DNA of 64,000 nucleotides from an uncultured Gammaproteobacteria bacterium (GTDB lineage Bacteria; Patescibacteriota; Patescibacteriia; Magasanikbacterales; GWA2-37-8): assembly GCA_964540825.1 (NCBI GenBank), contig CAZINT010000003.1:19250-83249 (forward strand), written 5' to 3'. The notes below the pieces were generated by a model. The model did no database searches, had not been told where the DNA came from, and saw only the letters and a program-made list of their open reading frames with translations. Positions 6,405 through 36,500 of the stretch are shown here, one piece after another (within the stretch, counting starts at the first letter, position 1; the number at the start of each line of letters is the position of its first letter). Made by a program: the position numbers and the translations under genes.

Positions 6405-6408
6405 CTTT

Positions 6409-17433: not shown

Positions 17434-18838
17434 AGAGTACGGGCGGAAACTTTGTAGGCACAGCTACCGAAGGAGTTTCGTGAAATAAAATTTTATAAAA
17501 TTCCGGCATCAATTCATCAACCGCTTCGCCGAGCGTACACGAGCGCAGCAGGGTTTTGAGGACTTCGGCCGTCGAGGCATCTTGATACAACAAAAAATCA
17601 AAACTGCTTGCTCCCACCATCCGATGTATCGTTTGCAAGTTTAAACATGCAAAATCAGCAGCCAGATAGTCGGTTTCAATCACTCGAATCATTTCAAGCT
17701 CCCGCTCTAAAGCATCCGTGGCCATGAGCAGCTGTTCATAGCGTTTTTTCATGTCAGCTAAATAGCTTACCTGCAAAAAACCACCTCCGCAGCGTAAACC
17801 ATAATAAAATGACAGCACGATATAACAAAGTGCCATGCTTGGAATAAGCTCTTTACGCCCGAGCGCCTTACCGAGCGCTTCTGGGGTTAATTCTACCATA
17901 TATTCCCCGTCTTCTGACACTAGCGCAGCATCTTGGCGTAACAAAGATTTTCTTTCACCTCGGACAAGTGCCCAGAACAAAAAAGTACCCTTTCTTTCCT
18001 CGAACGAAAAAGCCCCGACGCAGCCATCAAACAAACGCTCAAAAGCCTGATACCAAACAGCGTCGCTGACCAACTTATTGAGTATTGTATTTTGACCCAA
18101 ATGATACTCTGCCAAAAGTTCGTTAACAATACTCTCTTGATCAAGAAAAAGACAGGCGGCATTTTCTTGCCCGGCAATTTTTTTCCAGAGCCAATAGTTG
18201 GTATAACTGATCTGTTCGGCATAGGTAGGCAAAGAAAGAACCTTTGCAGAACCAAAAATAGTATCAAGTGTTGAGCGGAGTATCTCGAGGCGTTCAGACG
18301 AAATATCTTGGTGAACCAGATGGTCGCGAAGCACCCTGAAATCTTCTTCTCCATATCCGGCTAATCCGTACACAGGATGATGCCGCTCGCGCAGACTGAA
18401 AAAAGATACACGCAGCTCCTCGCCTGATCGAGTATGAAAAAAATGACCACGCGGAAACGAAGAATTATTAAGCGAAATACTGCTGCACGATAAAACTATA
18501 TTTACCGCCTTTTTCTGCTCGCCAAGAGCCGCTAAACGACTCCATTGTCCCGTTACTGAAAAAGGGTGCGTAAGCGGCCCATGATGGTCGCCAGTTGACA
18601 CGGTGTAATGCTCGCGCAGTTCCGTGAGAACAGCCGGCACAATACCCGGGTCGATAAGACGTACTCTTTTTTCTATACTAGCCAGCAGCTCTTTTTGTCG
18701 TTCAATCGAAACCGTCGGCGGGTTTCCCATGGTTTGCGTGTGGTACGACAACAAAGACAAGCCGCCGCGCGTAGCCAGAATTTTTTTTAAACCAGGCGCA
18801 ACCTCTAAAACTCGAGAACGTAATTCAGCAAAATCCAT
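17423..18838 (-). CDS. Conserved hypothetical protein (471 aa), first gene of the three-gene operon with the ATP-grasp and TPM genes.
   Basis: Long ORF with balanced composition. No motif I can name. Confidence 0.5.
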   Translation of the reverse strand: MDFAELRSRVLEVAPGLKKILATRGGLSLLSYHTQTMGNPPTVSIERQKELLASIEKRVRLIDPGIVPAVLTELREHYTVSTGDHHGPLTHPFSVTGQWSRLAALGEQKKAVNIVLSCSSISLNNSSFPRGHFFHTRSGEELRVSFFSLRERHHPVYGLAGYGEEDFRVLRDHLVHQDISSERLEILRSTLDTIFGSAKVLSLPTYAEQISYTNYWLWKKIAGQENAACLFLDQESIVNELLAEYHLGQNTILNKLVSDAVWYQAFERLFDGCVGAFSFEERKGTFLFWALVRGERKSLLRQDAALVSEDGEYMVELTPEALGKALGRKELIPSMALCYIVLSFYYGLRCGGGFLQVSYLADMKKRYEQLLMATDALERELEMIRVIETDYLAADFACLNLQTIHRMVGASSFDFLLYQDASTAEVLKTLLRSCTLGEAVDELMPEFYKILFHETPSVAVPTKFPPVLYAK

Positions 18839-18902
18839 ACTAACTAAACGATCGACAGCGCTATAATAAAAATACCCCGGTTACCAGGGTATTTTTAGCA
18901 TG

Positions 18903-18989
18903 CGGAGAGGGAGGGATTCGAACCCTCGAGGGCGGTGAAGCCCTGCAGCTTTAGCAAAGCTGGACGATAGACCACTCTGACACCTCTCC
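18903..18989 (-). tRNA. tRNA-Ser (anticodon GCU), class II with long variable arm.
   Basis: Reverse complement reads GGAGAGG...CAGCT-TTGCTAA-AGCTG, a 5-bp anticodon stem and 7-nt loop giving anticodon GCT. Variable arm AGGGC-TTCACC-GCCCT. T-arm GAGGG-TTCGAAT-CCCTC. G73 discriminator. CCA is not encoded. Confidence 0.8.
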
Positions 18990-19018
18990 CTGATTTACTA
19001 TATGGGTACGCTGGTTTG

Positions 19019-19105
19019 CGGAGAGACTGGGATTCGAACCCAGGGAACTCTTGCGAGTTCGGCAGTTTAGTAAACTGCTGCTTTCAACCGCTCAGCCATC
19101 TCTCC
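19019..19105 (-). tRNA. Class II tRNA with Ser-type identity elements. Anticodon loop reads UUACUAA, so the apparent anticodon is ACU.
   Basis: Reverse complement: GGAGAGA-TG-GCT-GAGCGGTTGAA-AGC-A-GCAGT-TTACTAA-ACTGC-(GAACTC-GCAA-GAGTTC)-CTGGG-TTCGAAT-CCCAG-TCTCTCC-G. The cloverleaf is clean, with G73 and a long variable arm as in tRNA-Ser. Position 34 is A rather than the G of its neighbour. Confidence 0.6.
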
Positions 19106-22451: not shown

Positions 22452-23174
22452 CTATCCCCGTGCGCCGACCAGACCCCAAACTTTTTCACACCCAGCCGCG
22501 AGTAAAACACGGGCGCATTCGCCCAGCGTACTGCCCGTGGTATAGACATCATCAACTAAAATTATGTTTTTTGATCCAGATGCTTGAGCAGCCTTAAATG
22601 CGCCATCCAAATTATGCTCTCGACCTTGTTTATCGAGCCGCGCTTGGTGAGGCGTATTTTTAATACGAATTAGAATTTTTGGCTCGATGCGTACAGAATA
22701 TCCAAGGCGCCGAAGACTTGCAGCGGCCTGACCAGCTAAAACTAACGATTGATTAAATCCCCGTTCTCGCTCGCGGCCGGGATGGAGCGGGACCGGTACT
22801 AAAACCACTTCTTCGCTTGGACGGAGCCATTCCGGAGGCTGGAAAACAAAATAAGTATAAAATAACTTTTCCCAGAGCCCGGCGGTATCAAGTGCTCCCT
22901 GGTATTTTAGAGCTTTGATAAGTTTGGCAGGCGGACCATCTTCTTCATAATTAAATAAAGCCGTAAGCCCGGCGAGGGATCCTACGGCTTTATTTAAAGT
23001 ACTCTGCTCTACTAAAAAAGGAAATTCTTTTTGACACTTTTCACACCACCACGATCCTTCGGACGAACACGTTACACAAAAACAAGGAAACAAGACCGAA
23101 CTTAAGAAATTACTGAGCCGCTTAAACAACATACTAAAAGTACGCTTCGGCAAAAATAAAATTATTTTCCCCAA
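22452..23174 (-). CDS. comFC: ComF-family phosphoribosyltransferase-domain competence protein (ComFC).
   Basis: N-terminal Cys4 zinc finger CFCVTC...CEKC. C-terminal PRTase loop IILVDDVYTTGSTL. Last gene of the T4SS-like operon (13-nt overlap with the upstream gene). Confidence 0.7.
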   Translation of the reverse strand: MGKIILFLPKRTFSMLFKRLSNFLSSVLFPCFCVTCSSEGSWWCEKCQKEFPFLVEQSTLNKAVGSLAGLTALFNYEEDGPPAKLIKALKYQGALDTAGLWEKLFYTYFVFQPPEWLRPSEEVVLVPVPLHPGRERERGFNQSLVLAGQAAASLRRLGYSVRIEPKILIRIKNTPHQARLDKQGREHNLDGAFKAAQASGSKNIILVDDVYTTGSTLGECARVLLAAGCEKVWGLVGARG

Positions 23175-23752
23175 ACAAAATTACTGACCAGCCAAGTATC
23201 CCCTGTTTTTACCATGGAGACCGTTATATTTTGCTGTACGCTGCTTGGCACAGTTCCCTGCAGTTGATTTCGGACAGTTTTGAAAAAGAATTCTGCATTT
23301 GTTCCTGACCATTTTTGAACATCCATGGTTACTACTTGAGTGGTAACTCCGGTAAAGACAGCTGCTTTAGCGGTAGTTTTGGGTGCAATTTTTTGCCACA
23401 GCTCAGGGGTTACGAGCGAGCGCACTTCTTCAAGATTTTGTGAATTGTTATCGGTTGAATACGTTCCATAGCGTTCCACAAAAATACGGGCTAATTGTTT
23501 GGCACCATTTTGTTCAATTTCATCCGATGTACGAGCGCGAATCGGCAGTCCGGCGGGAATAGTTGTAGGCTGCTGGCCAGTTTCAATCGGTAGGGTTTCT
23601 CCCGGAGTTGTACTGGTAGAAGATGGTGTTTGGCTTGTTCCTGCAGGCGTATTTTTATTTCGTGAGCGAACAAAGAAAATAGCCCCGATTATAAGTCCGA
23701 CGACTACAACTACGCCAATAATGATAAAAATACGAGAACGGAGTGAAAGCAT
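23162..23752 (-). CDS. Bitopic membrane protein of the T4SS-like operon. Possible VirB8-like (NTF2-like C-domain) component.
   Basis: N-terminal TM helix, Thr/Pro-rich linker, about 120-aa globular C-domain. The VirB8 assignment rests on architecture and position only. Confidence 0.35.
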   Translation of the reverse strand: MLSLRSRIFIIIGVVVVVGLIIGAIFFVRSRNKNTPAGTSQTPSSTSTTPGETLPIETGQQPTTIPAGLPIRARTSDEIEQNGAKQLARIFVERYGTYSTDNNSQNLEEVRSLVTPELWQKIAPKTTAKAAVFTGVTTQVVTMDVQKWSGTNAEFFFKTVRNQLQGTVPSSVQQNITVSMVKTGDTWLVSNFVWGK

Positions 23753-23790
23753 ACAGTAAAATAATAAGTAAGCAGGTTAATACCAAATTT

Positions 23791-25671
23791 TTAAGCGGCG
23801 CTTTGCTGGTCAAATTCTTTTTTGGCTTTTTCAATATCCAAAAGCTGCTGCGGATTAGTAGTTACAATCTGGTCTTCGGTGTAGGACGCGACAACTTTAA
23901 TAGCGGCGTGCTTAAGCCCCGCAAAAAATATACCTTCCCCAATACCGCTTTCGAGGAGCAGATATTTTTCGCTGTCAGTCAGCAAGAACACTTTTTGGAT
24001 AAGATCAATTGCCGCCGGAGACTGACGCATCAGAAGCTGCAACGACGAGCTGGTAACAATGGCCTGACCGTACTGCGACTTTAAAAAGTCATTAACATCC
24101 TGAGTAATCGTCGTCACGCCAAGGAAATACTTGCGGCATCGTTTGACCAGCGCATAAATAAAGCGGGCACTATCTTCATGCTGCATGAGCCACCAGGCTT
24201 CATCAATAACGAGAATACGCTTTTTGCTTTCACTACGAACAACGTTCCAAATATAGTTAACAATAGCATAGATACCTAAGGGGCGCAGCTCATCTTCAAG
24301 ATCACGGACACTGAATACAACCAATTGGTTTTTCATGTCCACGTTTGTGGGCGAATTAAATAAGCCGCTAAATGTTCCTTCGGTAAACTTCTGAAGTTTC
24401 AAAATAAGCTGGCTTGAGCCTTCCATACCTTCCAAAATTTCTTGCAAATCCTGCATGATCGGCGGCTGAACCGTATTGAGATCCGCTTCGGCCGTGATAT
24501 CTTTTTTGGCATAGGTTTCAATGAGCGCCCTGTCGACAATGGAATCTTCTTCGGTGGTTATACCGCCAAGCATGATGCGCAAAAGCCCTTTGACGGTAAT
24601 AACCGCACCGCGAATAATATCTTCAGTCGAAAAATCTTTACCAGTCGGGCGCGGCAAATCAAACGGGTTAATTTTACTTTCACTTGAGAGTGAAATATTA
24701 ATATAGGTTCCACCAACCGCATCGGACAAATGTTTGTATTCCATTTCCGGGTCAATAATAATCACCTCGACGCCCATCATGAGACTGCGTAAAATTTCGA
24801 GTTTAATCGCATAACTTTTACCCGCACCAGAGGTCGCAAACACCACCATGTTAGCGTTCTGCAAAGAAAACCGGTCAAACAAAATAAGGCTGTTATTGTG
24901 GCGGTTGATGCCGTATAAAATACCATCGTCACTCGTAAGCTCTGCCGAAATAAACGGGAACGACGCGGCAATCGGCGACGAGTTCATGTTAAACGCAATC
25001 ATCAGCTCGTCATTACACAGCGGCAGCGTGGAGTTAAAACCCTGCTCGCCTTGGAACAATACTTTGCGGCTGCTGATCAGTTTAGCGCCGAAGATACCCT
25101 CGATGTCTTCCGAAATTTGATCCAGCTTTTCTTTGGTCTCGGCGTAGACAGTGACGTAAAAAGCAAATTGGAAAAAGTGCTCAACCCCCTGGGTTAAATT
25201 ATCGCGCAGCTGTTCAACATCGCGCAGCGCCGTCTCGCGGAGCGGATCCCTTGGGGCGCCCTTGTCGGCATCAGCGTTAATCTGGGCTTCGAGTGCACCA
25301 ACTTTGTTTTTGAGTTGTTTTAAAATAATTTCCGCCTTCACCGGATAAAAGAACATACTGATATCCATGGTGATCGACAAGTTAATCACCGGCGAACTCC
25401 AACCGATCGAAATATAACGGGGATATGAAACAATAAAAATCGTGCGGCAAAAAACCGTACCCAGTTGCAAAAAATTTGTTTCAACATTAAAGGCAGCGGG
25501 TGCAATAAGGTCGCGAATGGATACCACGCCTTCTCTGTAAATCCGCTCTTCTTCAAGCGTGATGAGTTCATCCTGCTCCTTTTTTTTGAGCACGGTTTCC
25601 TCGCTGACCATTTTTTTCTTGGCCAGTGATTCACTGTCTTTGCTGTTTAAAATCGACGGTTTAAAAGCCAT
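23791..25671 (-). CDS. VirB4/TrbE/CagE-family T4SS ATPase, C-terminal ATPase portion.
   Basis: Walker A VVFATSGAGKSYAIK. Walker B RILVIDEAWWLMQ. Overall VirB4 C-domain pattern. Confidence 0.85.
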   Translation of the reverse strand: MAFKPSILNSKDSESLAKKKMVSEETVLKKKEQDELITLEEERIYREGVVSIRDLIAPAAFNVETNFLQLGTVFCRTIFIVSYPRYISIGWSSPVINLSITMDISMFFYPVKAEIILKQLKNKVGALEAQINADADKGAPRDPLRETALRDVEQLRDNLTQGVEHFFQFAFYVTVYAETKEKLDQISEDIEGIFGAKLISSRKVLFQGEQGFNSTLPLCNDELMIAFNMNSSPIAASFPFISAELTSDDGILYGINRHNNSLILFDRFSLQNANMVVFATSGAGKSYAIKLEILRSLMMGVEVIIIDPEMEYKHLSDAVGGTYINISLSSESKINPFDLPRPTGKDFSTEDIIRGAVITVKGLLRIMLGGITTEEDSIVDRALIETYAKKDITAEADLNTVQPPIMQDLQEILEGMEGSSQLILKLQKFTEGTFSGLFNSPTNVDMKNQLVVFSVRDLEDELRPLGIYAIVNYIWNVVRSESKKRILVIDEAWWLMQHEDSARFIYALVKRCRKYFLGVTTITQDVNDFLKSQYGQAIVTSSSLQLLMRQSPAAIDLIQKVFLLTDSEKYLLLESGIGEGIFFAGLKHAAIKVVASYTEDQIVTTNPQQLLDIEKAKKEFDQQSAA

Positions 25672-25685
25672 ACAACTACAAAAAA

Positions 25686-26381
25686 TTAAACTCCTTCTTC
25701 CACCTGAAGGTCGCTAAGGGCCGGCAAGTGTTCGGTAAGCGCAATATCTGGATTATACGTTGAATAATAGAGCTCAATCAAAGCCTGTGTATCGAGCCTG
25801 ACTACCGTTAGGCCCATACTGCTGAGTCCTGATTCAATTTGCCTGACGCGCATATCTAAGTCGTATTTGCGTTTCAAAAATTTCTCTCCTTTAAGGTGCA
25901 CTGCATTGGCGGGATTGAAAATTTCACCGACCCGGGCAAAGAAACTTTTTTGACGATTGGAAACCGGATCATAGGGCACGATCACAAAAAACTGTTTGCT
26001 CATGATTTCGCCCAGGCTGATAAGTTCGGTAACGAACGATCGATAATCGGCAATCTGCGCACGCAAGAGTTCATTGACTTGTAAACGCTCTTTCTCGAGC
26101 AGCTTATCGAGGTAGGGTTTGATATAGAGCTTACGCGATTGGATAAGGACCTGCAGCGGGTATTCAAGTGAATTTAAAAACGATACATACGAAGAAATAA
26201 TAGCATTTTGCTCATCTTCGTTTTTGAGCGCAAAATTAATACTCGAGACAAGTAAAACAGCCCGGAGTGTTCCGTCTTTCATTACGACTGTATCGTTTTT
26301 GATTTCACCGATCAAAAGATGCAGTTGGGTCGGCGCGGTCCTTTTTTTATTTTTAGCTGCTTGTTTATTTTTCATACGCAC
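25686..26381 (-). CDS. VirB4 N-terminal domain encoded as a separate ORF.
   Basis: 231 aa. VMKDGTLRAVLLVSSINFALKNEDEQNAIISSYVSFLNSLEYPLQVLIQSRK resembles the VirB4/TrbE N-terminal domain. A TAA stop is followed by a 14-nt spacer with AAGGAG, then the ATG of the ATPase gene. Confidence 0.5.
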   Translation of the reverse strand: MRMKNKQAAKNKKRTAPTQLHLLIGEIKNDTVVMKDGTLRAVLLVSSINFALKNEDEQNAIISSYVSFLNSLEYPLQVLIQSRKLYIKPYLDKLLEKERLQVNELLRAQIADYRSFVTELISLGEIMSKQFFVIVPYDPVSNRQKSFFARVGEIFNPANAVHLKGEKFLKRKYDLDMRVRQIESGLSSMGLTVVRLDTQALIELYYSTYNPDIALTEHLPALSDLQVEEGV

Positions 26382-26813
26382 TTATTCTGCTTTATAATAG
26401 CCGCCCGTGTTGACGAGGAGTGAAAGATTGCGAATACGCATTGCTGGCACTTGTTTTGCAAGCGCTTCATGCTCAAGCTCGGCTGCCGGAGCCATTTTGC
26501 GCAAATCGTTTAATTCACCGTTGGTGTAGGTTTTATCCCAAATTCGACGACTCGGCCGCTTGAGCGTCTGGACAACATTAAGTAAAAAATAATGAAAGGA
26601 CTGACCATTAATTTTGACAAATGCCAGGATAAGTGCGAGCCCGCCAATTAACGCCAGGGCAACGATAAACAAAGCGGTGTCAGCCAATTTGAAAATAATA
26701 AAAAGGAGCAGCCCCGCGACAAGTAAAATAATAAACTGACGGGTAGTCACTGGCCCAAAAATCTTATCTTCAACATCAATAAATTGTGGAACGGTAAATT
26801 GATTCATGTACAA
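26382..26813 (-). CDS. Small two-TM membrane protein, VirB3/TcpE/PrgI-like by size and position.
   Basis: 143 aa. Two adjacent hydrophobic helices near the N-terminus. Sits immediately upstream of VirB4, as in Gram-positive T4SS loci. Confidence 0.4.
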   Translation of the reverse strand: MYMNQFTVPQFIDVEDKIFGPVTTRQFIILLVAGLLLFIIFKLADTALFIVALALIGGLALILAFVKINGQSFHYFLLNVVQTLKRPSRRIWDKTYTNGELNDLRKMAPAAELEHEALAKQVPAMRIRNLSLLVNTGGYYKAE

Positions 26814-26815
26814 AA

Positions 26816-27940
26816 TTATAACAATTCCTTTTCCATCGCGACGAGCGCTTCTATTTCGGCCATCTGGATTCTTTTTTTATCACTGAGAATGGCGCTCAGC
26901 GGCCGGTGTTCGCTTAGCCCTTGAGTCACCGCTTCCATATAGGCCAAATAGAGCGGCGAAGTTTGCCAAACTTCAAGTGCCCGCAAGTACAAAACAATCG
27001 ATTCTTCTTGAATATGTTTAAACTTTTCTCGCAGTTCGCGAGCTGCCTCGAGGGGATTATTGGATAAGCGTCTAAAGTCAGTCAGCGTAAATTGCTCCAA
27101 CTCTTCGATCGGACCGACTTCAAGACTTACCGCCGCAACATCCCGAACAAGCGGTTTTGATTCTGTGGCGCCGGATAAACTAAGCGGGCTTGCCGGCAGC
27201 GGCGCCCGGGCCATAGGTGAAACTAATTCAGTGCGTTCAGTCTGATTTTTGGGTTTGACTAAATCGTGTATTTCTAAGGGTGCGCTGGCAGCTGCAGCAA
27301 GTAACGCCGAGAATTCTTTAGAAGGCATTTTTTTTGCTGGAGCTGGAGGAATTTTTGACTGCGGCTGAGCTGCTATAGCTGCTGCTTTTTTAGGCGCACC
27401 ATGCTTAAAGGCATTAAACGGAGTTTGTGTAGAAGGAAAAGTATGGTGTTCTACAGCCGGTTCACGATTTTTTTGAAACTGCGTAGCGGGTTGATCGATC
27501 TCTAAATCTGGAACAGCTGTTTTTTTCTCAGTAATTTTAAAGGTAACTGCGCTGGCAGGAGTAGTTACATGTTTGGCGGCATCGGCCTGGCTGAGCACAT
27601 CATTTTTTTGTTCTTCAGTTAGCCCGAGCCCGCCCTCACCTATTTTACGAACCAATGCGTTTTCAGTATCCGCGCGCGTACGAATATCTTTGAGGTAGAG
27701 CTGCAAGACACTCCGCAACCGGTTTTGATTATCTGGTCCGACCATTTTTCCTACTTGTTTCATGATCGTTTCGACTTCGGCAGCCCGACCATCACTGGCA
27801 AGCGGCAGTGCTGGCGGGGTAGGCGCTGCAGGCATTGCCGTTTTTTTCTTGAGTTCGTTAAATTCAGCCAGCGTCATTCTGACCACAGTTCCATCGGCCT
27901 TTTTGACCGCTACCATTGGTTGTCCTCCTGCTGCTGCCAT
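26816..27940 (-). CDS. Hypothetical protein (A/P/K-rich, no TM) in the T4SS-like operon.
   Basis: ORF track 374 aa. A 2-nt gap to neighbours on both sides. Confidence 0.4.
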   Translation of the reverse strand: MAAAGGQPMVAVKKADGTVVRMTLAEFNELKKKTAMPAAPTPPALPLASDGRAAEVETIMKQVGKMVGPDNQNRLRSVLQLYLKDIRTRADTENALVRKIGEGGLGLTEEQKNDVLSQADAAKHVTTPASAVTFKITEKKTAVPDLEIDQPATQFQKNREPAVEHHTFPSTQTPFNAFKHGAPKKAAAIAAQPQSKIPPAPAKKMPSKEFSALLAAAASAPLEIHDLVKPKNQTERTELVSPMARAPLPASPLSLSGATESKPLVRDVAAVSLEVGPIEELEQFTLTDFRRLSNNPLEAARELREKFKHIQEESIVLYLRALEVWQTSPLYLAYMEAVTQGLSEHRPLSAILSDKKRIQMAEIEALVAMEKELL

Positions 27941-27941
27941 A

Positions 27942-28925
27942 TTATGAATTTAGAAGGTCATCATTCCAATGAAATTTGCCATCGGCTTCGTTATAATAAT
28001 ACAAATCGAGTATCATCGCATCGTTATATGCTTCGGCGTATGAAGCGAGTTTACCTAGAACACCTTCGGCGTCGATAAATTGGCCGGAGGCATCTTGAGG
28101 AAACTCGGATTCAAGCAAATTTTTAATATTTTCGTAGGACGGTTTATTTATTGATTCATCTGCAGGGACACTGCCATCTTCAGCATCTTCTCCAATTCCT
28201 TGCTCGTTTTTGTCTCCAATATTTTTTGAAACCGAAACAGGCTGACTACTAGCTATAGTATATGTTTGCGGATGAATAAAAGTTTCTACAATGTACCAAA
28301 TCCTATTTGTTTTAACACCTAAAAAGAAATTAACAAGATCGATAAACTTTTCCACAATATCATCAGGATCAGCAAAAACGTATCCACCCGTCGCTTGTTC
28401 AGACGGAGAAAATAATTTATTTAACTTCGTTCTGAACGAAGCTTCTTCGAGAGAATCATTGCCTCGACTATTTAATAATTTTATTTCTTCTATCAACGCT
28501 TCAACAGTGGCGGGTTTACCCTGAAAAATACCCACCGGAAATTCTGACACCATGAAAGATCTAAGGATTTTGCTATACAAAGATTCAACCTCTGCCAGAT
28601 CAAACACTCTTAGACCAAAGTACCACAGCATTTTTTCTAATACGTCGTATTTTAAGAGAAACGCCATCGGTACCTGCCGCGCAAATAAATCTTCTACAAT
28701 ATCCTGAGCTTCCATTCTTTCCATATGGCGCCAGGACAAATCAACATACCACTTCCAATAAGAGAACTGAAAATTTTGTATATCTGAAAAATTTTTATTA
28801 GCAAAAAAACTTTTCAGCTCTTTCCACAGCAAAATTCGAGCGTCAAAAGTTTTGGTTAACTCGTCGAATTCTTGCTGCTTACGCTGAAGCTCGGCAGCGG
28901 TAAATTGTAGGGAGGTGATAAACAT
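27942..28925 (-). CDS. Hypothetical cytoplasmic protein in the T4SS-like operon.
   Basis: ORF track 327 aa. No TM. Acidic C-terminal region. Confidence 0.4.
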   Translation of the reverse strand: MFITSLQFTAAELQRKQQEFDELTKTFDARILLWKELKSFFANKNFSDIQNFQFSYWKWYVDLSWRHMERMEAQDIVEDLFARQVPMAFLLKYDVLEKMLWYFGLRVFDLAEVESLYSKILRSFMVSEFPVGIFQGKPATVEALIEEIKLLNSRGNDSLEEASFRTKLNKLFSPSEQATGGYVFADPDDIVEKFIDLVNFFLGVKTNRIWYIVETFIHPQTYTIASSQPVSVSKNIGDKNEQGIGEDAEDGSVPADESINKPSYENIKNLLESEFPQDASGQFIDAEGVLGKLASYAEAYNDAMILDLYYYNEADGKFHWNDDLLNS

Positions 28926-28942
28926 TTTATTCTAAATAGAAC

Positions 28943-31705
28943 TTAAGGGGCACCCTTACCCTTCCAATCACTAAAAACCGTATCTCTGATTTTATTATAA
29001 ATATCTACGTTCCCAGTTGCAGTATAATGAGCTTTTAACTTTGTAAGGAGGGTTATCACATCTGCCCTAGCTGCCCCAACCATCTTACTGTCTTTGGTAC
29101 TATCCGAAAAAGCACTAGAGAAACCCGAAGCTGCATCACGCGTGTCTTTGAATTTACTCATTTTTTCAAACAAATTATCCACATCAAGTGACGTTGAGTT
29201 GCCAGCATCATCAGTAGAACCAAAACCTTGAATAAAGTCAGTTTGTTTAAAGTCTACACGAGGTGCGAAGTAAGATTGCATACCGCTCTTCAAATTTGCA
29301 GCAGTATCTGTTGCATTAGGACCAACCTGTCTTCGCGTCGAATCATAGGCGTTAAACAAGCGAAAAGCAGTATGTGCGCCTTGTGAGGGTTTGATTTTAT
29401 TAGCTGCAAGCACGGCCGGATCGTCCGAAAGCTCTTCTACAGCACCCGCAACTCTTACTTCACCTTTACCAGCCAGACTTTTTGTCGCATCAGAGAGCAG
29501 CGACAACACGGCCTGAGCCTCATCATTGTTACGGAAAGTTTTATCATCATTAATTAAGCTATGTGCAACATCAAATTCCCTTGCGTTAGTAATGGCGCTT
29601 CTGCCGGTTATAGCCTGCAGAATATCCTGCCCGGAAGATTCCGCACTCATACTCGCATTACCGCGAACTTTTTTAAGCACCGCCGCCATAACAGCGGTAT
29701 ATGTCTGCTGACCGTCTTTTGCGGACGCCGCCAAGAGTTGTGCCGCGCCGCGCCGCAAATTTTTTAATTTCTTCTCTTCTTCTTCCTTAATAGTACCCGC
29801 CAGTAATTTGGCATCTAGCGCCATTGTTTCGGTAGCAATTTTGACCGCTTCATTCACTTTTTCATTTTGATTCATGTTTAAAAATTCCTTTTGATCTTCT
29901 TCAAACTGATGATTATATACGGATTTTACTGTAGCCGCAGCTTCAGCATTTTTACCCTGTTCTCGAAGTAGCGCAGCACGCTGTTGAGCAATAGCTACCG
30001 CTTCCTGACGATGCAAACCTTTCCTGATGTTTTCAGCATTTGCTTGTGCTTCGATAGCTGTGTGCTCATACTCATGAAACTCAGGGTCGTGCTCGTCAAT
30101 TAAACGCTGCTCTTCTTTGGCATATTTTTCATCCTTCTTTTTTTCAGCCATTTTTTGGGCAGCATGCGCTTTTACACCGGTAAGGAGTTTTAATTTACCA
30201 CCCCAAGATTTACTTGTACTATAGGTTTCTTCAACAATTTCATGTACATTTTCGGCTGACTTTTCCCAATCTTCAGCGCGCTTAGCCTTGCGCCCCGCTG
30301 TTTCCCAAAAAGCACCTCCCACATATGCTTTGAGGTTGTTGTAAATACCACCATCTTTTGCCGCTTTATCTTCCCAAGCCTTAACTCTTTTGTTGCGAGC
30401 AATGTCGCTCACCCCCTTCAAAACGCCCAAACCACCCTTAATGGATTTTCCTAAATTCTGCCAATTCTCTCCACCAATTACCGGGAATTTCATAGCAATA
30501 CCCTTTGCTGCCGGAGCAACCACATTGCTTCCCGTCCACTTAGCAGCATTAAGGCCGCTAGCATAGCCGAATACTTTCTTACCAAAGTCAAGGCCGCTGC
30601 CAACAGCGTCTGCACCCATACCACCAAGCTCGCTGGCCGCTTTGGCCCCAACCATAAGCATGCCAATGGCAATAGCAAAACTGGCCATTTTTGACCAGGT
30701 CATGATAACCGAAATTCCGGCAGATTGTAGACCAGAAGCGAGCCCTCCTGTTCCAGGAGAAGTATCTTGATCAATTCTGTTTGGCGCAGTCGAGTGACTG
30801 GCAATATCACTGCTAATATCCCCACTTCCAAGCGTCACGAACGAAAGCCAGATAAAAAAGAGTAGTACCGGACCCGTAATAACATTGGCAATAAACTGGT
30901 CCCACCATTTGTGCGGAAATGATTGGGTAGAGGGCAAAATACTGAGCACAAAAGCGAGCGGCGAGAGCACAATCAAAACCCAGAGCACAACCATGCGCTG
31001 GATAAGCATGTAGAGGAATGCAAGCATAACCCCCAAAACCATCGCTGCAAACGTAATACCTCCAACTGCCGCAACAAATTGAGCCGTAGCGGTCAATTTG
31101 TCGGGAGTGACACCGTCAGCCAGTTCTAATATTTTATTAAGTTGAAAAGCGTTAATCAGGTTGCCGCCCGCAGTAGCAGCGATACCGTTCACAAACGTGG
31201 TCATGACAATTTGGCCGATATCGATAATTACTCCGCAAATCGTACGACTGAAGTTGACAATTATCGCGGTAAAAACAAACTTACCTAATAATTTTTTCCA
31301 TTCGTATTGCTCGCTGCCTAAAATAGTACCAAACGCAATCACCAAAAGAATGACCACAAAACCCATGTTGGTAAAGTCGCGAACCATCACCCACCCGACA
31401 TTAACAGCCGTTGAATCGAGGTAGCCATTATACCCAGCCAAGGTGATAATGAAGGTAAGGACAAATATAGTTAACTTAATAAAGAGCCCGGCAATAGCCA
31501 GGATGACTGTCGCAAACAGGTTAAGCCAAAAATCAAGGGAAATTATTCCAGCTGAACTGGCAGTCTGAGCAAAGGCTGGCGGCGCAAAAAACGTAACTGC
31601 TACTCCGCCAACAACAAGACAAATTAAAAAAACACCAATCCATTTACGGCGGAGGCGAAACCATGAACCGAGCGCCTGAAGTTTGGAAGCGACGTTCGCG
31701 AACAC
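28943..31705 (-). CDS. VirB6/TrbL-like polytopic membrane protein with a roughly 500-aa hydrophilic coiled-coil C-terminal extension. First gene of the T4SS-like operon.
   Basis: Signal-like N-terminus, then about eight TM helices including MVVLWVLIVLSPLAFVLSIL...VITGPVLLFFIWLSFV. C-terminal K/E-rich coiled coil. The track start (GTG at 31744) coincides with the TGTGCTATACT promoter element, so the in-frame GTG at 31705 is preferred. Confidence 0.6.
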   Translation of the reverse strand: MFANVASKLQALGSWFRLRRKWIGVFLICLVVGGVAVTFFAPPAFAQTASSAGIISLDFWLNLFATVILAIAGLFIKLTIFVLTFIITLAGYNGYLDSTAVNVGWVMVRDFTNMGFVVILLVIAFGTILGSEQYEWKKLLGKFVFTAIIVNFSRTICGVIIDIGQIVMTTFVNGIAATAGGNLINAFQLNKILELADGVTPDKLTATAQFVAAVGGITFAAMVLGVMLAFLYMLIQRMVVLWVLIVLSPLAFVLSILPSTQSFPHKWWDQFIANVITGPVLLFFIWLSFVTLGSGDISSDIASHSTAPNRIDQDTSPGTGGLASGLQSAGISVIMTWSKMASFAIAIGMLMVGAKAASELGGMGADAVGSGLDFGKKVFGYASGLNAAKWTGSNVVAPAAKGIAMKFPVIGGENWQNLGKSIKGGLGVLKGVSDIARNKRVKAWEDKAAKDGGIYNNLKAYVGGAFWETAGRKAKRAEDWEKSAENVHEIVEETYSTSKSWGGKLKLLTGVKAHAAQKMAEKKKDEKYAKEEQRLIDEHDPEFHEYEHTAIEAQANAENIRKGLHRQEAVAIAQQRAALLREQGKNAEAAATVKSVYNHQFEEDQKEFLNMNQNEKVNEAVKIATETMALDAKLLAGTIKEEEEKKLKNLRRGAAQLLAASAKDGQQTYTAVMAAVLKKVRGNASMSAESSGQDILQAITGRSAITNAREFDVAHSLINDDKTFRNNDEAQAVLSLLSDATKSLAGKGEVRVAGAVEELSDDPAVLAANKIKPSQGAHTAFRLFNAYDSTRRQVGPNATDTAANLKSGMQSYFAPRVDFKQTDFIQGFGSTDDAGNSTSLDVDNLFEKMSKFKDTRDAASGFSSAFSDSTKDSKMVGAARADVITLLTKLKAHYTATGNVDIYNKIRDTVFSDWKGKGAP

Positions 31706-31794
31706 AAGAAAAATTATAATTGAAAACTGAACGTAGTATAGCACACTTTTTGAGGCGCAACAACGTATGGGGATAAGCGGAAAAACAAAAAATT

Positions 31795-31828
31795 AAAAAA
31801 CATTCTACAGCAAGTAGAATGTTTTTTA
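31795..31828. terminator. Bidirectional intrinsic terminator (10-bp perfect stem).
   Basis: AACATTCTAC-agcaa-GTAGAATGTT (31799-31822) followed by TTTTT, with an A-run upstream. Insulates the lipoprotein gene from the T4SS-like operon. Confidence 0.7.
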
Positions 31829-31961: not shown

Positions 31962-32501
31962 CTACGGCCTGTCGGAGGTGTACGCCGACCTCAGGCTGTA
32001 GAACCCCTGGCGGGGGGTCCCGCCGATGCCGTCGTAAAACGGCGACGGGTAGGTCTTGAAGAGGAGGCTCGTGAGCACCACACCTCCCAACACCTTCCCA
32101 TCGCCCGGATCACCAGCGATGTAGATCTCCTGGGGCGAACTGCCCACCTTAAGGATCAGCCAGAACCCATTGTCGCGGCGCGTCGCCTGGTAGATGGGGT
32201 TGCCGCCCACCGAGCTCTCGGCGAGCGACGCGGCGGTCGGATCCGGTCCGGAGTACAGGGCGAAGGACTGGAGGGATGACGCACCATCCCAGCGCGCGAC
32301 CAGCTGACCGATCCGGTACTCACACACCGGGTCAGTGTTGACCATCCGGAAGTGGCCCAGCAGACGGATGCCGCTGCTTGGCTGGGCAGTCGATTCATTG
32401 ATTGCGCTGACCTCGGGCATGGTGTCTTGGCAGGGGTCGCCGCAGGCGGCCAGAGCGAAAACAGCCAGAAGGGCAAAAAACAAGCTTTTACTGCGCATCA
32501 T
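31962..32501 (-). CDS. Hypothetical lipoprotein (GC-rich islet 3).
   Basis: Signal peptide with lipobox LAAC. High third-position GC. AAGGAG Shine-Dalgarno site. Confidence 0.5.
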   Translation of the reverse strand: MMRSKSLFFALLAVFALAACGDPCQDTMPEVSAINESTAQPSSGIRLLGHFRMVNTDPVCEYRIGQLVARWDGASSLQSFALYSGPDPTAASLAESSVGGNPIYQATRRDNGFWLILKVGSSPQEIYIAGDPGDGKVLGGVVLTSLLFKTYPSPFYDGIGGTPRQGFYSLRSAYTSDRP

Positions 32502-32828
32502 GGACTCCTTCGGTTAGGTTGTGCACTCCCAACCTAACCGAATTTGAATTTTTTGTCAATTTTTATAGCTTAAAAACCTTCTTTTTCTAAAATTAACTTT
32601 TTAAAAAACTTATCCACAGTGTTTTATTGCTAAAATAAGCTAAATATGTGATAGTGAACTTGACAATTTTATAGATTTTTAATCTATTTTCGTGTATTTT
32701 AATGGGTTACTTTCTTTAAATAAAGAGTAACGGCCTTATCCTGCATCGTACTCAGGACATTTTCTTAGATGTCTTAGGTAAGATGCGGGACATTATTCCT
32801 GCGTTGGTAACTGCCTTGGAGGCACATC

Positions 32829-33392
32829 ATGAACCGTCGGAGGATCACAGAGTTTCTAAACATTCTCGCCGCCATCTTCGCGCTAACCCTTTCTTCCGGC
32901 TGCTCGCCGGAACTGATCGGCGGAGTCCCAGAGTACAGCTCTGCCAAGCAGGGTCTCGACCCCGCCGGCAAGCTCAGGGCCGGGGATGACGGCCTCATCC
33001 ACCACCCCGAGCCCTGGGCGAAGGACGGCGGACTGCCGCGAGACCCGGGGACCGGATGCAAAGACATCGTGCCCCAGTTGCAGTGGATCGGCTTGACCGG
33101 CTGGAAGTTCGGCTGGAACGACGACGGGAAGACGTGGCAGAATCTGCTCGTCTACCCGGCCCACTTCGTGTCGACCCGCACCTCGGTGCAAGGCACTCAC
33201 TGCATCGGGGTTATCATGGACGACGGGCCCAACCAGCTGGGGACCATCGATCTCATCCTCAGCTACGCCCAGCTGGGCGAGGCCTACTCGTCTAATGAGG
33301 GTGGAATCTTCCGTCCGGTTGGTCGAGACGACGAGACAGGGCTCACCCCGTCCGACCTCGGCTTCCTCTGGGGGCGGCACGCTGCGCCCTAA
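32829..33392 (+). CDS. Hypothetical lipoprotein (GC-rich islet 3), divergent from the previous gene.
   Basis: Signal peptide with lipobox LSSGC. High third-position GC. GGAGG Shine-Dalgarno site. Confidence 0.5.
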   Translation: MNRRRITEFLNILAAIFALTLSSGCSPELIGGVPEYSSAKQGLDPAGKLRAGDDGLIHHPEPWAKDGGLPRDPGTGCKDIVPQLQWIGLTGWKFGWNDDGKTWQNLLVYPAHFVSTRTSVQGTHCIGVIMDDGPNQLGTIDLILSYAQLGEAYSSNEGGIFRPVGRDDETGLTPSDLGFLWGRHAAP

Positions 33393-33420
33393 TCCTCGGC
33401 CAAACATTGGCCAAACTTCC

Positions 33421-33456
33421 GAGCAGATGCGCTTCGCCCATCTGCTCGTTCTCTTT
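33421..33456 (+). terminator. Hairpin terminator for the islet-3 plus-strand gene.
   Basis: GAGCAGATG-cgcttcgcc-CATCTGCTC followed by a T-rich tract. Confidence 0.45.
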
Positions 33457-33486
33457 AAAAAACAAATTTTGTTTTTTAACCGAAAA

Positions 33487-33520
33487 TAAAAATCCCCTTT
33501 AATATGGGGATTTTTATTTT
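33487..33520. terminator. Intrinsic terminator downstream of the giant-protein gene.
   Basis: ATCCCC-tttaatat-GGGGAT with flanking A-run and T-run. Confidence 0.6.
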
Positions 33521-33534
33521 AATATGCTCTGATG

Positions 33535-36500
33535 TTATTTTGTGACAGGCAAGATCACATCACGGCTAAATTTAATCCATGCTTTATCACTATTACATTC
33601 ATTCAGTCCAGCCGGTTTATTATAGCAGCCGCCTCCAGCGCGGCACGTGCCCGTGCACCACCCCCAATTATCTTCAACTCGTACAGCCGGCTTAAATTTA
33701 CAGCAACCATTTGGATACAGTTCCGGATTAGAACCACATTCATTAGCTGGATAGACCTTCGCTGTGCGCGCATCACATTGGTAGACATGATCGAATTGGA
33801 AGTATGAACTATCGCAGGTCTGATCAAGAATACGGCCAAAGCTTGGAGCTACGTTTGAAGCCAAACAAATTGGAGCGACCGAACAATCGTCGTCGGTACT
33901 GCAGGTCGCCTCGGTAGTCCGTTTAACAATACAGCGATTGACACCCGCATCACGGTCACAGGTGTTGCCTGCGCCACAGTCAGCGTCTGAAGTACAGCTT
34001 TTGTCTTGAAGCTCGCTTACTTGACACTGCTTTGGTTTGCCAGCGGCAACCTGAACACAGGCTGCAGGAGCAAAACCTCGATGGTTGCGATACAACCCGC
34101 TGTAATCTGCAGGAGCTGGACGATCACCCCAGTCAACCGAAATCTTGCGCAGCGGCATATGATTCGCATCGGCAAAAGCATAGAACTTAAGGAACACATG
34201 CCCGGTCTTACTGGTTATTTTAACATCACGATCGGAACGATCATTGACCGTTACCCCGGGTTCAGTACTATCTTCAATACATTGCTCCAGCGAATTACAC
34301 GGACCAAGCGGGAACACTACCGGAGGTTTAACCGGATTTTCAGCAGTTTCAGTTATATCATATGTCGGGTAGTCGGTCGTGCGCCAAATTCGATCAGCAC
34401 CTGTAGCGGTATAATTGAAATAATTAAGACCGTAGACCCGGGCAAACAATCCGCTCAGTGATGTTTCGCCATCAGATATTTCTCTTCCGGAAGCAACGCT
34501 GTTAGCCATAGTATATCCATCACCCATGGGCGTAGTTTGGTAACAGAGCCCATTTGGATTACTCGCTGTTCTTGGACATGAATAGGGTGAGCCGACAGTA
34601 AAGCCATTTATAGCCGGATTATTCTTCGTAATAGTATCAGCGAAAAATGTAGCACAAACAGTCTTGTTCATATCTGTACAGACTTTTTGCGTCTGGAATG
34701 GCGACATGAATATAGGTGAATTGGCCGCAGGAGGACTGAAAAGACCCATTTCTAAACTGCCGAACGGTGCAGTGAGCGTATCGTACGTATAGCCCAGGGT
34801 TGAAACCGTGTAGTTAGGACGAGTCGAGCTCTTCCACAGCCTGTCGGTCCATGGAGCCGTATCTCCCCGTGCTGGAGTCTGCGCATAATGAAGCGTTGCA
34901 TCTTCAACATAGGTACAAAGCTGCTTAAGTTTAAAGCTTACCTCATACCAAATATTTCCTCCGCCGCCAGAATTGTCACAGTAAGCCACGTCATACCCAA
35001 TGAGCGTACCCTGCGGTCCGCTGTTAAACTTAAGATTAACAGCATGCCAATTTCCTGACCCCGAAGCGTCATTTCTACCATTGCAAATTCCATACACAAC
35101 ACCATTCCGTTCGCTCACTTTACCTGAAGTGTGCGCGCCCCACATCTGACCTCCACCGATTGCAAGTGATTCAAAACCACTTTCTTTGAACGGATTGCCG
35201 CGCAAAACATCACAGCCGCCATTTTTCGATTCACAAATATTACCATTCTCATCTACATACCGGCCATTATTGGCTGCACCGCCATTATTACCATTATCGC
35301 TGCCATAGAGAAGGAGAAAATCATTGCTGCTATGAAGGTATTTGCCAGTTACCACATAACCACTCGTAACACCATTATTAGGATTTTTAAGCCGATTGAG
35401 CTTGTACTTTGCCTGTACCCCATCAGGGTCGGCGCCATTTGGAGTAGGGTCGTTGGGCCAAATGGAAAACCAACTATCCGGAGCAGGATCTTCGTTATCG
35501 CCACTAATAACTCTAAAATCAATTCTTTCAATGTCTTCTTTTGTAAATTTCCTTTCCTGATCAGTTGCAGCAATAAAGTCACGAACAAAGTACCCGCCTG
35601 TTGAGGCATTGTCATAGTTGAAATTTCCATTACCCGGGCTCATATACGTATAGTCGGTACCAAAACGCAGATTAGAATTTACTACTACGGTTGGTTTACC
35701 ATCGACAAGCGGAGCACCGCCCGCAACTGATGCCTGGGTACAGAAGTATCGACCGCTATTGGCAGGAGGATTATACCCGGCTTCCGGGTATAAATTATTT
35801 ACGTCAACCGAACCAACCAGGCTATCTACCGGTAACCAGCTAAGGCACGGGTGCTTCGTTGGATCGCCATTCACAATACGGGACAAATCTTGTTCCAGGC
35901 AGAAGCCTTTCCATCCCAGCAAGTTGTAGCTGCGTTTTTGTTTAAGACAAACACCGTCAGTTATCTTATTGCCCATAGCATCAACAACCGCTGTCATGGC
36001 GCCATTGGCTACTTTTGTCTTATAACAATCGTCATCAACATCACATTTATAACCATCACGCCCACCGCCCTGACAGATACCGCCCGGCACAACACCCTGA
36101 TTGGTATCGCCAACACGATCGGCAGCGTTTACCGAGCCGTTTGGATTGCTATAGTTCCAATATCTGGTTAAGGTATCGGCAAAATTTACCTTGGTATAAT
36201 CACACTCGCACAAATATCCTTGTGTACCATCTGAAGAAGGATTCTTTGTTTCCTGACAGAAGTTTGCACTGGCAAAGAAAGAGTTCTTGTTCGTGAGTGT
36301 AGTATACGGGAACGGTGAATCTTTTTCAGGGTACGCACGGCAGGACTGGCGGATGGAGTTGGTATTGAGGTCACTGGCCTTGCCGGTAATGTTCTTCATA
36401 CAAATTCCGTTCAAGCACGTTCCAGAGTTACCGTTTCCACAAACTGGATTGTTGGCGTCAACAATTTTACAAGCTACGTCGTCTTTAGTCTTGCCATCAG

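Follow-up and report, generated by a model that had tools for sequence, protein, structure and literature searches.

The window analysed here is a 64 kb stretch of DNA in which eight ORFs lie on the minus strand between positions 22452 and 31744, in the 5'-3' order VirB6-like, u327, u374, PrgI/VirB3-like, TrsD, VirB4, VirB8-like (p196) and ComF. The junctions read from the sequence confirmed an earlier sequence-only reading of eight tightly packed genes, with 17 nt between the VirB6-like gene and u327, 1 nt between u327 and u374 (25 nt with Met9 as the u374 start), 2 nt for u374/PrgI, 0 nt for PrgI/TrsD, 14 nt for TrsD/VirB4, 38 nt for VirB4/p196, and either a 13-nt overlap (start TTG 23174) or a 29-nt gap (start ATG 23132) for p196/ComF. 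All reading frames of the operon are intact. The setting is chromosomal, as evidenced by the nearby housekeeping genes for KsgA, Sua5, RF1, GroEL, YidC, NusA and LeuRS; the GC content of the operon (41–46%) equals that of the remaining window, and tRNA-Ser genes are located 3.4 kb from the operon without adjoining it. The top VirB4 matches were named Candidatus Magasanikbacteria or Patescibacteria.

The single extended -10 promoter that had been proposed for the operon is present on the minus strand at 31735..31763, with a -35 element TTGTTG (31763-31758), a 17-nt spacer and an extended -10 element TGcTATACT (31743-31735). Sequence comparison showed that this block is kept between diverging flanks in two related loci, L001 and L002. 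It overlaps the GTG start listed for the VirB6-like gene at 31744. Because of this overlap, and because L001 carries a stop codon inside the extension upstream of the gene, the real start is probably GTG 31705. The promoter was absent from the list of a consensus promoter scanner because its -35 element fits at only 3 of 6 positions. A terminator scan and the sequence itself further revealed a terminator-like site, a 15-bp hairpin with a T-run, at 31794..31828 on the minus strand, which would set the 5' boundary of the operon, being the probable end of the lipoprotein/giant-gene transcript that precedes it. The one promoter would drive all eight genes. The giant gene adjoining the operon encodes a secreted Cys-rich protein, a possible adhesin or substrate, and is likewise found at this position in at least 16 related loci.

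Profile searches bore out the VirB3, VirB4 N-terminal and VirB4 assignments. The PrgI family protein (VirB3-like; 26382..26813, minus strand) scored 40.5 bits against PF12666 (E 4.2e-10; gathering score 27) and contains a hydrophobic segment within residues 23–66. The adjoining gene (25686..26381, minus strand) encodes a TrsD/TraD-type, stand-alone homologue of the VirB4 N-terminus, which matched NF041427 TrsD (E 9.5e-9) and positions 90–233 of VirB4_plasma (E 7.5e-8). PrgI was found in 70/70 and TrsD in 71/71 of the related loci. The VirB4 ATPase (23791..25671, minus strand) is of the monoderm (CD1110/FATA) type, scoring 348 bits against NF045971 (E 1e-103; cut-off 325) over positions 171–728 of the 752 in the profile, with some 170 N-terminal positions missing; the motor would be split between TrsD and this VirB4 body. 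It also matched PF19044 (E 3.6e-28), its closest solved relative is a Gram-positive VirB4, PDB 4AG5 (E 7.7e-46), and its Walker A (SGAGKS) and Walker B (ILVIDEAW) motifs are intact. The VirB4 orthologues are 73–99% identical where accessory proteins of the same species have diverged to 22–30%, and the motor is under strong purifying selection.

The first gene (28943..31705, minus strand; listed to 31744) encodes a VirB6/TrbL-like polytopic membrane protein with approximately 7–8 hydrophobic segments followed by a hydrophilic C-terminal tail of about 500 aa, an 'extended VirB6' that would serve as the channel protein. Its assignment stands through the orthologues, 12 of 46 of which matched Pfam PF04610 TrbL/VirB6 (best E 1.5e-5), but the window protein alone gave no family match in the Pfam TrbL/VirB6 search; the gene is present in 47 of 51 related loci. 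Between it and PrgI lie u327 (27942..28925) and u374 (26816..27940), both on the minus strand; for u374, Met9 (27916), where database entry P0241 begins, is a possible start. Neither protein has a Pfam, NCBIfam or PDB sequence match or a TM segment, and both look cytoplasmic. Of all the operon genes, u327 is the least conserved: it was detected in 33/64 loci with 22–40% identity, in each case flanked by the VirB6-like gene and u374. The latter belongs to the conserved core, being kept in 67/68 loci, and its family comprises 1982 cluster representatives, so that the description of the two as lineage-specific parts was overstated. Homology between u327 and u374 was rejected (hhalign probability 0.1%).

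The product of the gene after virB4, p196 (23162..23752, minus strand), contains one N-terminal TM segment (residues 8–26), a Ser/Thr/Pro-rich linker and an NTF2-like domain. An AlphaFold2 model of the soluble domain (residues 72–196) was obtained with a pLDDT of 94.6 and a pTM of 0.88, and the Foldseek matches of this model included CagV, TcpC, R388 TrwG/VirB8, PrgL, TraH, DotI and A. tumefaciens VirB8, at E values of about 1e-4 and TMq of 0.6–0.76, with CaMKII hub domains interspersed among them. Weak matches to PF04335 VirB8 were seen for 4/46 orthologues. The suggestion of a bitopic VirB8-like protein thus gained from a confident structure model, from which we predict that this gene encodes the VirB8-like component.

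The last gene of the operon (22452..23174, minus strand) encodes a ComF protein of the ComFC/GntX family, with a 4-Cys zinc ribbon and a type I PRTase domain. The possibility that it is a generic PRTase was checked: the protein matched TIGR00201 (E 1.4e-25, positions 1–184 of 190) and GntX (E 2e-22) versus only about 1e-4 for the top generic PRTase, which upholds its place in the ComF family, at a score of 90 bits that lies under the TIGR00201 trusted cut-off of 233 bits. The C33/C36/C44/C47 ribbon and the VDDVYTTG PRPP loop are conserved. An independent gene call of 226 aa and the orthologue alignment both support ATG 23132 as the probable start. Coverage of TIGR00361 by two ORFs, at 56216-57739 (positions 45–346) and 54747-55649 (positions 418–663), established that comEC is indeed split, with a methyltransferase gene separating the two parts; it is encoded 23 kb from the operon.

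The locus is a Patescibacteria-clade T4SS in the genome of an ultra-small member of the Magasanikbacteria (class ABY1), and both the arrangement and the idea of DNA import are already known from work published in 2025. Relaxase-less T4SS were described across Patescibacteria, in a class composed of VirB4, TrsD, PrgI and VirB6, for which import of DNA or other macromolecules was proposed (Quinonero-Coronel et al., 2025, Microb Genom, PMC12102498). The operon shares with this class a FATA VirB4 with adjoining TrsD, PrgI/VirB3 and VirB6, and a chromosomal location near ksgA with no relaxase or linked coupling protein. It also resembles the T4SS loci of ABY1, in which comF is found, while comF was not reported in those of other Patescibacteria classes, and to which VirB8 homologues are mostly confined (PMC12102498).

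The synteny analysis covered 80 related species-level genomes, all of a single lineage with VirB4 identities of 73% or more. These loci retain the core order u374-PrgI-TrsD-VirB4-VirB8-like-ComF with median intergenic gaps of 3–18 nt, and in 66/67 of them comF lies no more than 1.5 kb behind virB4 and in the same orientation. The gap between the VirB8-like gene and comF has a median of 3 nt, with 12 overlaps, and the two genes are possibly translationally coupled. Synteny ends directly after comF, where the commonest downstream neighbour, a convergent gene, occurs in 15/68 loci. ComF is therefore a true member of the transcription unit, as had been suggested, and its conserved terminal gene in at least 66 species. 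One could argue that comF and the T4SS genes were joined once in the ABY1 ancestor and kept together by tiny-genome operon compactness, with no functional link. Since all 80 loci belong to one lineage, the 66 comF-T4SS observations are not independent events, and in L049 comF has moved by approximately 3.7 kb and become inverted while the T4SS genes are intact. However, genes upstream of the operon also vary among loci, so that rearrangement is frequent and the retention of comF is not mere regional synteny; together with the short gap and the overlaps, which suggest selection for coupled expression, this makes such neutral inheritance improbable.

As claimed previously, no VirD4-type coupling protein (T4CP), relaxase, integrase or pilin gene was recognised among the window ORFs scanned. 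The scan for T4CP, relaxase and integrase families covered every large ORF and all but a few of the overlapping shadow ORFs of 100–210 aa, and a search of the whole window for small pilin-like ORFs with two TM segments gave none. Neither a VirB2-like pilin gene or array nor a peptidoglycan hydrolase gene lies in or beside the operon, and VirB7, VirB9, VirB10 and VirB11 were not detected within it. Patescibacteria often carry T4CP homologues at a distance from virB4 (PMC12102498), and this genome could have a coupling protein gene in another place. The loss of relaxase and coupling protein would also be expected of a decaying, non-working integrated conjugative element, and the PrgI(TrsC)-TrsD-VirB4(TrsE) order is that of pGO1/pIP501-type conjugative plasmids (PMC12102498). 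This reading is close to refuted, given the intact frames and Walker motifs, the conservation of VirB4 above that of the accessory proteins, the same chromosomal operon in 80 species, the host-like GC content, the lack of an integrase among the ORFs scanned and the distance to the tRNA-Ser genes. A T4SS-type operon, not a mobile element, is therefore supported.

Comparison with pGO1/pIP501-type Gram-positive conjugative systems revealed a common TrsC-TrsD-TrsE order, the lack of an outer-membrane core and a bitopic VirB8-like protein, TraH/TraM in those systems; our model matched TraH (5AIW) and PrgL (7AED). Unlike those plasmids, the operon is chromosomal and kept across species, carries u327, u374 and comF, and is devoid of a relaxase, T4CP, oriT, hydrolase or plasmid-type surface adhesin gene. 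The Helicobacter pylori ComB system is likewise a T4SS with VirB3, VirB4, VirB6 and VirB8 homologues but no VirD4 or relaxase, in a genome with ComEC and ComFC. To our knowledge, comFC has not been described as a member of the two comB operons. In contrast to the operon here, ComB works in a diderm cell, where its role is passing DNA across the outer membrane, and it includes VirB2, VirB7, VirB9, VirB10 and, as recently recognised, VirB11 (ComB11; PMC13395361); the VirB4 of the window is split and of a different (FATA) clade. The term 'ComB-like' thus holds as an analogy only, and the two are instances of independent co-option. The archaeal Ced system (CedA/CedB) is similar in concept, in that a VirB4/HerA-like ATPase serves relaxase-free DNA import across a single membrane; membership of the Ced family was rejected, as the match of VirB4 to CedB (E 2.3e-13) is weak and confined to the P-loop region, reflecting a common ATPase fold, and no CedA-type proteins were recognised.

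DNA import is a plausible candidate function in view of comF as a conserved member of the operon, and it is worth noting that ComFC is an ssDNA binder linking import to recombination (PMC10633639). Against it stand data from the one cultivated relative, Southlakia epibionticum (Saccharimonadia), the experimental prototype of this T4SS class, in which the homologous T4SS (SEML1_0006-0019) is essential while comEC, comF and dprA make no significant contribution to fitness (Wang et al., 2023, Cell, PMC10633639; PMC12857230). Natural transformation there needs comEC, and a comEC deletion mutant is viable but not transformable (PMC10633639; PMC12857230), indicating that the essential role of that T4SS is not feeding ComEC. 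Since relaxase and coupling protein are missing there too, its authors proposed protein export or an alternative role (PMC10633639; PMC12857230). The Southlakia locus differs from the present one in having six pilins and hydrolases, and no VirB8 was found there, unlike the VirB8-like protein predicted here. A host-interaction T4SS with non-DNA cargo, for protein/effector export or epibiotic contact as proposed for Saccharibacteria, is a tentative but serious alternative for our operon, with comF only co-regulated, e.g., by host-contact induction, and acting apart from the T4SS, together with ComEC and type IV pili. The Southlakia results, the fact that comF in T4SS loci is reported only from ABY1 and the neighboring giant secreted protein are in keeping with it; the terminal, tightly spaced comF despite reshuffled flanks exceeds what loose co-regulation needs, and none of the operon genes was recognised as belonging to an effector-like or chaperone-like family.

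We favor, with a probability of roughly one in two, a vertically inherited chromosomal T4SS of the Patescibacteria clade whose activity is coordinated with ComF, nucleic-acid uptake being the leading guess. The machine would derive from a monoderm conjugation apparatus from which the relaxase and the linked coupling protein have disappeared, with the VirB6, VirB3, VirB4 and VirB8 proteins forming a cytoplasmic-membrane translocon that may act at host-cell contact. The ancestral or core role of the Patescibacteria T4SS is probably not DNA uptake for ComEC (PMC12857230), and the linkage to comF, being reported only for ABY1, may be a lineage-specific regulatory arrangement. In this lineage, coordination of the translocon with ComF, an ssDNA-handling competence protein, would favor uptake of nucleic acid as the best guess for one or more of the substrates, and imported DNA could go on to the split ComEC or pass straight through the T4SS channel.

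A single operon of eight minus-strand genes (positions 22452-31744) encodes a cytoplasmic-membrane type IV secretion system (T4SS) core, two soluble accessory proteins and ComF, and the core is made up of VirB6-like, VirB3-like, split VirB4 and VirB8-like proteins. All eight ORFs listed in a previous sequence-only reading of this DNA are present, and its overall description was accurate save for the start of the first gene and for a methyltransferase gene lying inside the split of comEC. Successive genes are spaced by 17, 1, 2, 0, 14 and 38 nt, and comF either overlaps the preceding gene by 13 nt or starts 29 nt after it, depending on which of its start codons is taken. Upstream (5') of the first gene, a 15-bp hairpin with a T-run (31828-31794) is followed by a promoter consisting of a -35 element TTGTTG, a 17-nt spacer and TGcTATACT at 31743-31735; this block is kept in the two closest relatives, and the sequence around it diverges. 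The GTG listed as the start of the VirB6-like gene (31744) falls within the extended -10 element, and in L001, the closest related locus, a stop codon lies inside the extension from that start; hence the conserved GTG at 31705 is more likely to be the start of this gene. No convincing internal terminators were observed within the operon, and the overall number of terminator-like sites was not above chance.

Thousands of close relatives of the window VirB4 (23791-25671) were retrieved, and all of the named ones belong to Candidatus Magasanikbacteria or to MAGs labelled "Patescibacteria group". The operon is surrounded by housekeeping genes (KsgA, Sua5, RF1, GroEL, YidC, NusA, LeuRS, Fpg, thioredoxin and IF-2), and its GC content of 41-46% is comparable to that of the rest of the window. 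Based on the VirB4 relatives, the housekeeping neighbours and the matching GC content, the window comes from the chromosome of an ABY1-class Patescibacterium with a small genome and is neither a plasmid nor an integrated element. For the comparisons, one genome per GTDB species was scanned, resulting in 80 loci from Magasanikbacteria with VirB4 proteins that are 73-99% identical; many records of this set bear the placeholder title "uncultured Gammaproteobacteria". The earlier claim that the window has no coupling protein, relaxase, integrase or pilin held for the scanned ORFs of the 64 kb. Coupling protein, relaxase, integrase, VirB11 and outer-membrane core families gave no match among these ORFs, which included all of the large ones, and a search of the 64-kb window for small ORFs by their hydrophobic segments, which could miss a divergent pilin, turned up none that was unassigned and carried two such segments as a candidate VirB2-like pilin. 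The few small membrane ORFs of the window are at least 7 kb off and match unrelated membrane-protein families or nothing. The idea that the operon is a decaying mobile element was rejected on the strength of its conservation, intact motifs and genomic context, and we consider it very improbable.

Several other features of the window were recorded. A giant ORF of 2642 aa (33535-41463, minus strand) has a signal-peptide-like N-terminus, is Cys-rich and shows a weak CBM_4_9 match; its protein has no relative among PDB sequences, at least 16 related loci have a homologue upstream of the T4SS operon, and a role as surface adhesin or T4SS-linked substrate is conceivable. Between the giant gene and the operon is a GC-rich island of about 1.5 kb (31962-33500; 53% vs 45%), which may be a recent insertion and contains two lipoprotein-like ORFs (31962-32501, minus; 32829-33392, plus) and a 13-bp hairpin (32509-32542); the 179-aa lipoprotein of this island is 43% identical in L001. 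A 440-aa protein (10437-11759, plus), encoded about 10.7 kb past the end of comF and not linked to the operon, combines an N-terminal coiled-coil-like region with an SLT_2/MltB-like lytic transglycosylase domain and is a possible VirB1-like cell-wall hydrolase. The leucyl-tRNA synthetase (58737-61601, minus) carries a NUDIX hydrolase domain (residues 385-505; Pfam E 1.4e-12) directly after its editing domain. Of two tandem tRNA-Ser genes (18902-19105, minus), one has a normal GCU anticodon and the second has TTACTAA as its anticodon loop, hence an ACU anticodon with A at position 34; to our knowledge, A34 is unusual in bacterial tRNA outside tRNA-Arg(ACG). A 394-aa ATP-grasp protein (16249-17433, minus) matches cyanophycin synthetase over the central part alone (positions 163-470 of the 862 in the profile), and its gene adjoins an unannotated 471-aa ORF (17423-18838).

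Profile searches bore out the VirB3, VirB4 and VirB6 calls through PF12666, NF045971 and PF04610, the last of these by way of orthologues. VirB4 scored 348 bits against NF045971 (CD1110 family; cut-off 325, E 1e-103), its Walker A and B motifs are intact, and its closest PDB relative is the Gram-positive VirB4 4AG5 (E 7.7e-46; R388 TrwK, 9e-6); by these profile and PDB-sequence matches, the protein is predicted to be of the monoderm/FATA type. It spans only profile positions 171-728, and the 231-aa ORF upstream of it, which had rightly been labelled as a VirB4 N-terminus, is TrsD, a free-standing homologue of that region (NF041427, E 9.5e-9). A 143-aa ORF is PrgI/VirB3-like, with a PF12666 score of 40.5 bits that exceeds the Pfam gathering score. 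In the related loci, TrsD adjoins virB4 in 71/71 cases and PrgI/VirB3 in 70/70. The 933-aa VirB6-like protein gave no profile match on its own, and a profile search with its N-terminal half against PDB sequences produced no meaningful match; 12 of 46 orthologues from related loci matched PF04610 (TrbL/VirB6), with a best E of 1.5e-5. Since a multi-TM N-terminal half precedes a hydrophilic tail of about 500 aa, the protein is a putative "extended VirB6", an assignment reached indirectly through the orthologues.

The 196-aa protein encoded after virB4 (p196; 23162-23752), which had been proposed as a VirB8-like candidate, contains a TM segment at residues 8-26. An alignment of 120 homologues was used as AlphaFold2 input for modelling of its soluble domain, and the resulting model (mean pLDDT 94.6, pTM 0.88) displayed an NTF2-like fold in which three helices precede a curved sheet of four strands. 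A Foldseek search of the PDB with this model returned many VirB8-family structures at E ~1e-4 and TMq 0.6-0.76, namely CagV, TcpC, R388 TrwG/VirB8, PrgL, TraH of pIP501, DotI, Agrobacterium VirB8, Bartonella TrwG and Rickettsia VirB8. CaMKII hub domains, which belong to another NTF2-like family, were interleaved in the same list with equal scores, so that the fold alone is insufficient to prove common descent. A profile search against PDB sequences gave no meaningful match, and PF04335 (VirB8) matched 4 of 46 orthologues weakly (best E 0.0019). Taken with the model, the TM helix at the N-terminus, a gene position immediately behind virB4 and these weak orthologue matches make a VirB8-like identity well supported. 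A 5.9-kb Logan contig was found to carry a p196 identical to that of the window.

The two remaining genes encode proteins of 327 aa (u327; 27942-28925) and, at 26816-27940, u374. Neither showed a sequence match in Pfam, NCBIfam or the PDB, family profiles included, and both are devoid of TM segments; they look cytoplasmic and for that reason are not obvious envelope parts. The u374 gene is directly upstream of PrgI in 67/68 loci and encodes a core component of the operon. It belongs to a large conserved family, for which a search of 1.84 billion proteins at E<=1e-3 yielded 1982 cluster representatives. Its helical domains weakly resemble nucleic-acid-binding PWI domains. The least conserved gene of the operon is u327, found in 33 of 64 loci. 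That u327 and u374 are paralogues was ruled out by an hhalign probability of 0.1%.

The identity of the last gene product was examined against both ComF and generic phosphoribosyltransferase (PRTase) families. ComF matched TIGR00201 over positions 1-184 of 190 with an E of 1.4e-25 (GntX, 2e-22), whereas other PRTase families reached ~1e-4, about twenty orders of magnitude weaker. Cys33, Cys36, Cys44 and Cys47, forming a 4-Cys zinc ribbon, are invariant and the PRPP loop VDDVYTTG is conserved among 45 orthologues; a second set of Cys pairs occurs in most of them and is absent from the window protein. Against the PDB, the single sequence gave no match, and the profile matched the generic PRPP loop only (H. 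pylori ComF 7P0H, E 0.0012). The TIGR00201 match, the ribbon and the loop agree with the earlier naming of this ORF as ComFC, and they indicate a member of the ComF family and not a generic PRTase, one that appears divergent because its score of 90 bits is under the trusted cut-off of 233.

The 80 loci share the order VirB6-like, (u327), u374, PrgI, TrsD, VirB4, VirB8-like and ComF. Among loci reaching far enough downstream, ComF is on the same strand as VirB4 and within 1.5 kb of it in 66/67; in the sole exception, L049, comF is inverted and about 3.7 kb away. Between the VirB8-like gene and comF, the median distance is 3 nt; it is <=50 nt in 57 of the 67, and in 12 the two genes overlap. Since all of these loci come from one lineage, the comF-T4SS adjacencies amount to one retained evolutionary event, and this shared ancestry speaks for neutral synteny as their explanation, which we consider quite unlikely. 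Beyond comF there is no gene conservation, the most frequent neighbour being a convergent gene in 15/68 loci, and the context upstream of the operon is variable; set against both, the near-universal tight spacing is an argument for comF being a selected part of the transcription unit. Neither recG nor radA, which have been reported in the vicinity of ABY1 T4SS loci, occurs in the window, and in the related loci they are uncommon in the 5 kb that follow comF. Identity across the loci is at least 73% for VirB4 and drops to 22-35% for the VirB8-like protein, u327 and ComF, which points to strong constraint on the VirB4 motor. Two loci, L052 and L057 (locus coordinates about 160-2000 and 6000-8900), read KsgA, p211, u374, PrgI, TrsD, VirB4; the block of giant protein, VirB6-like protein and u327 is missing from that position, which suggests that the VirB6-like module and the ATPase core can be separated.

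A survey of T4SS across Patescibacteria (Quinonero-Coronel et al., Microb Genom 2025; PMC12102498) described VirB4 proteins that form a clade of their own, descended from the monoderm FATA class, with TrsD, PrgI/VirB3, VirB6 and VirB2-like genes widely adjoining virB4, VirB8 homologues almost confined to ABY1, relaxases almost absent, coupling-protein genes seldom near the T4SS, and loci often near ksgA and the replication-origin genes dnaA and dnaN. Our operon resembles this clade in its FATA-type VirB4, adjacent TrsD and PrgI/VirB3, VirB6-like protein, chromosomal location and comF, and in that no relaxase or coupling protein linked to virB4 was detected among the scanned ORFs of the 64-kb window. 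It differs in that a VirB2-like pilin was not found near virB4, whereas the survey located such gene(s) near virB4 in 1135 of the VirB4-carrying assemblies; they are not obligatory. Since the same survey states comF inside the T4SS locus as an ABY1 trait and has published the import hypothesis, neither the locus type nor the hypothesis is novel, and the sequence-only reading is an independent rediscovery of that description; the window is one more example of the published arrangement rather than a new idea. What is new here is a quantification of how closely, and how nearly universally, comF follows the VirB8-like gene in Magasanikbacteria, the model-based structural support for a VirB8-like protein after virB4, and the recognition of u374 as a large conserved core-operon family.

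The description of the machine as ComB-like fared less well. The ComB system of H. pylori belongs to a diderm, takes DNA across the outer membrane and uses VirB2 and VirB7-10, plus VirB11 as shown in 2026 (PMC13395361). VirB2, VirB7, VirB9, VirB10 and VirB11 went undetected here, both in the operon and in the window scan, and VirB4 is monoderm-type; because these diderm parts were not detected in the operon, the likeness is at most a functional analogy. ComEC does co-occur, as in H. pylori, and is indeed split across two genes (54747-57739): a channel part (56216-57739, minus; DUF4131 plus Competence domain, ComEC_Rec2 positions 45-346) and a metallo-beta-lactamase part (54747-55649, minus; positions 418-663, E 1e-35), separated by a class I SAM methyltransferase ORF (55633-56241) that overlaps both by 17-26 nt. 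Unlike the conjugative T4SS of Gram-positive plasmids and ICEs, the operon lacks a mobile-element context in the window, the scanned window ORFs gave no relaxase or coupling protein, and the operon is conserved at chromosomal loci in 80 species.

Patescibacteria have no nucleotide synthesis of their own and live attached to other microbes. We infer that the ABY1 T4SS works at the contact with the host cell and is produced together with ComF, which would be an ssDNA-handling protein; given this co-production, nucleic-acid import is the leading candidate for at least one of its functions, a reading to which we assign a probability of about one in two. The recipient of imported DNA would be the split ComEC; a more speculative option is direct hand-over to ComF at the T4SS. 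Import is plausible but is weakened by Saccharibacteria genetics: in Southlakia epibionticum, a homologous T4SS is essential for epibiotic growth, whereas a comEC deletion mutant is viable and has lost transformability (Wang et al., Cell 2023; PMC10633639). The main rival, a non-DNA host-interaction role of the T4SS with comF merely co-regulated, is possible though not probable. A bolder form of the import reading, which we regard as rather doubtful, is that in ABY1 ComF, in place of a coupling protein and relaxase, came to serve the T4SS as its partner for handling substrate in the cytoplasm; a conjugation-derived machine would then run in reverse, pulling host or environmental ssDNA through the VirB6/VirB4 channel with u374 and u327 as new accessory factors. 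If true, such ComF-partnered import would add to ComB and Ced a third independent origin of T4SS-based DNA import, one without precedent among monoderm bacteria. The cargo of the conserved, essential T4SS of Patescibacteria is a major question of their biology, and comF, fixed as the last gene of the ABY1 T4SS operon, is the strongest genomic hint that this cargo may be nucleic acid.
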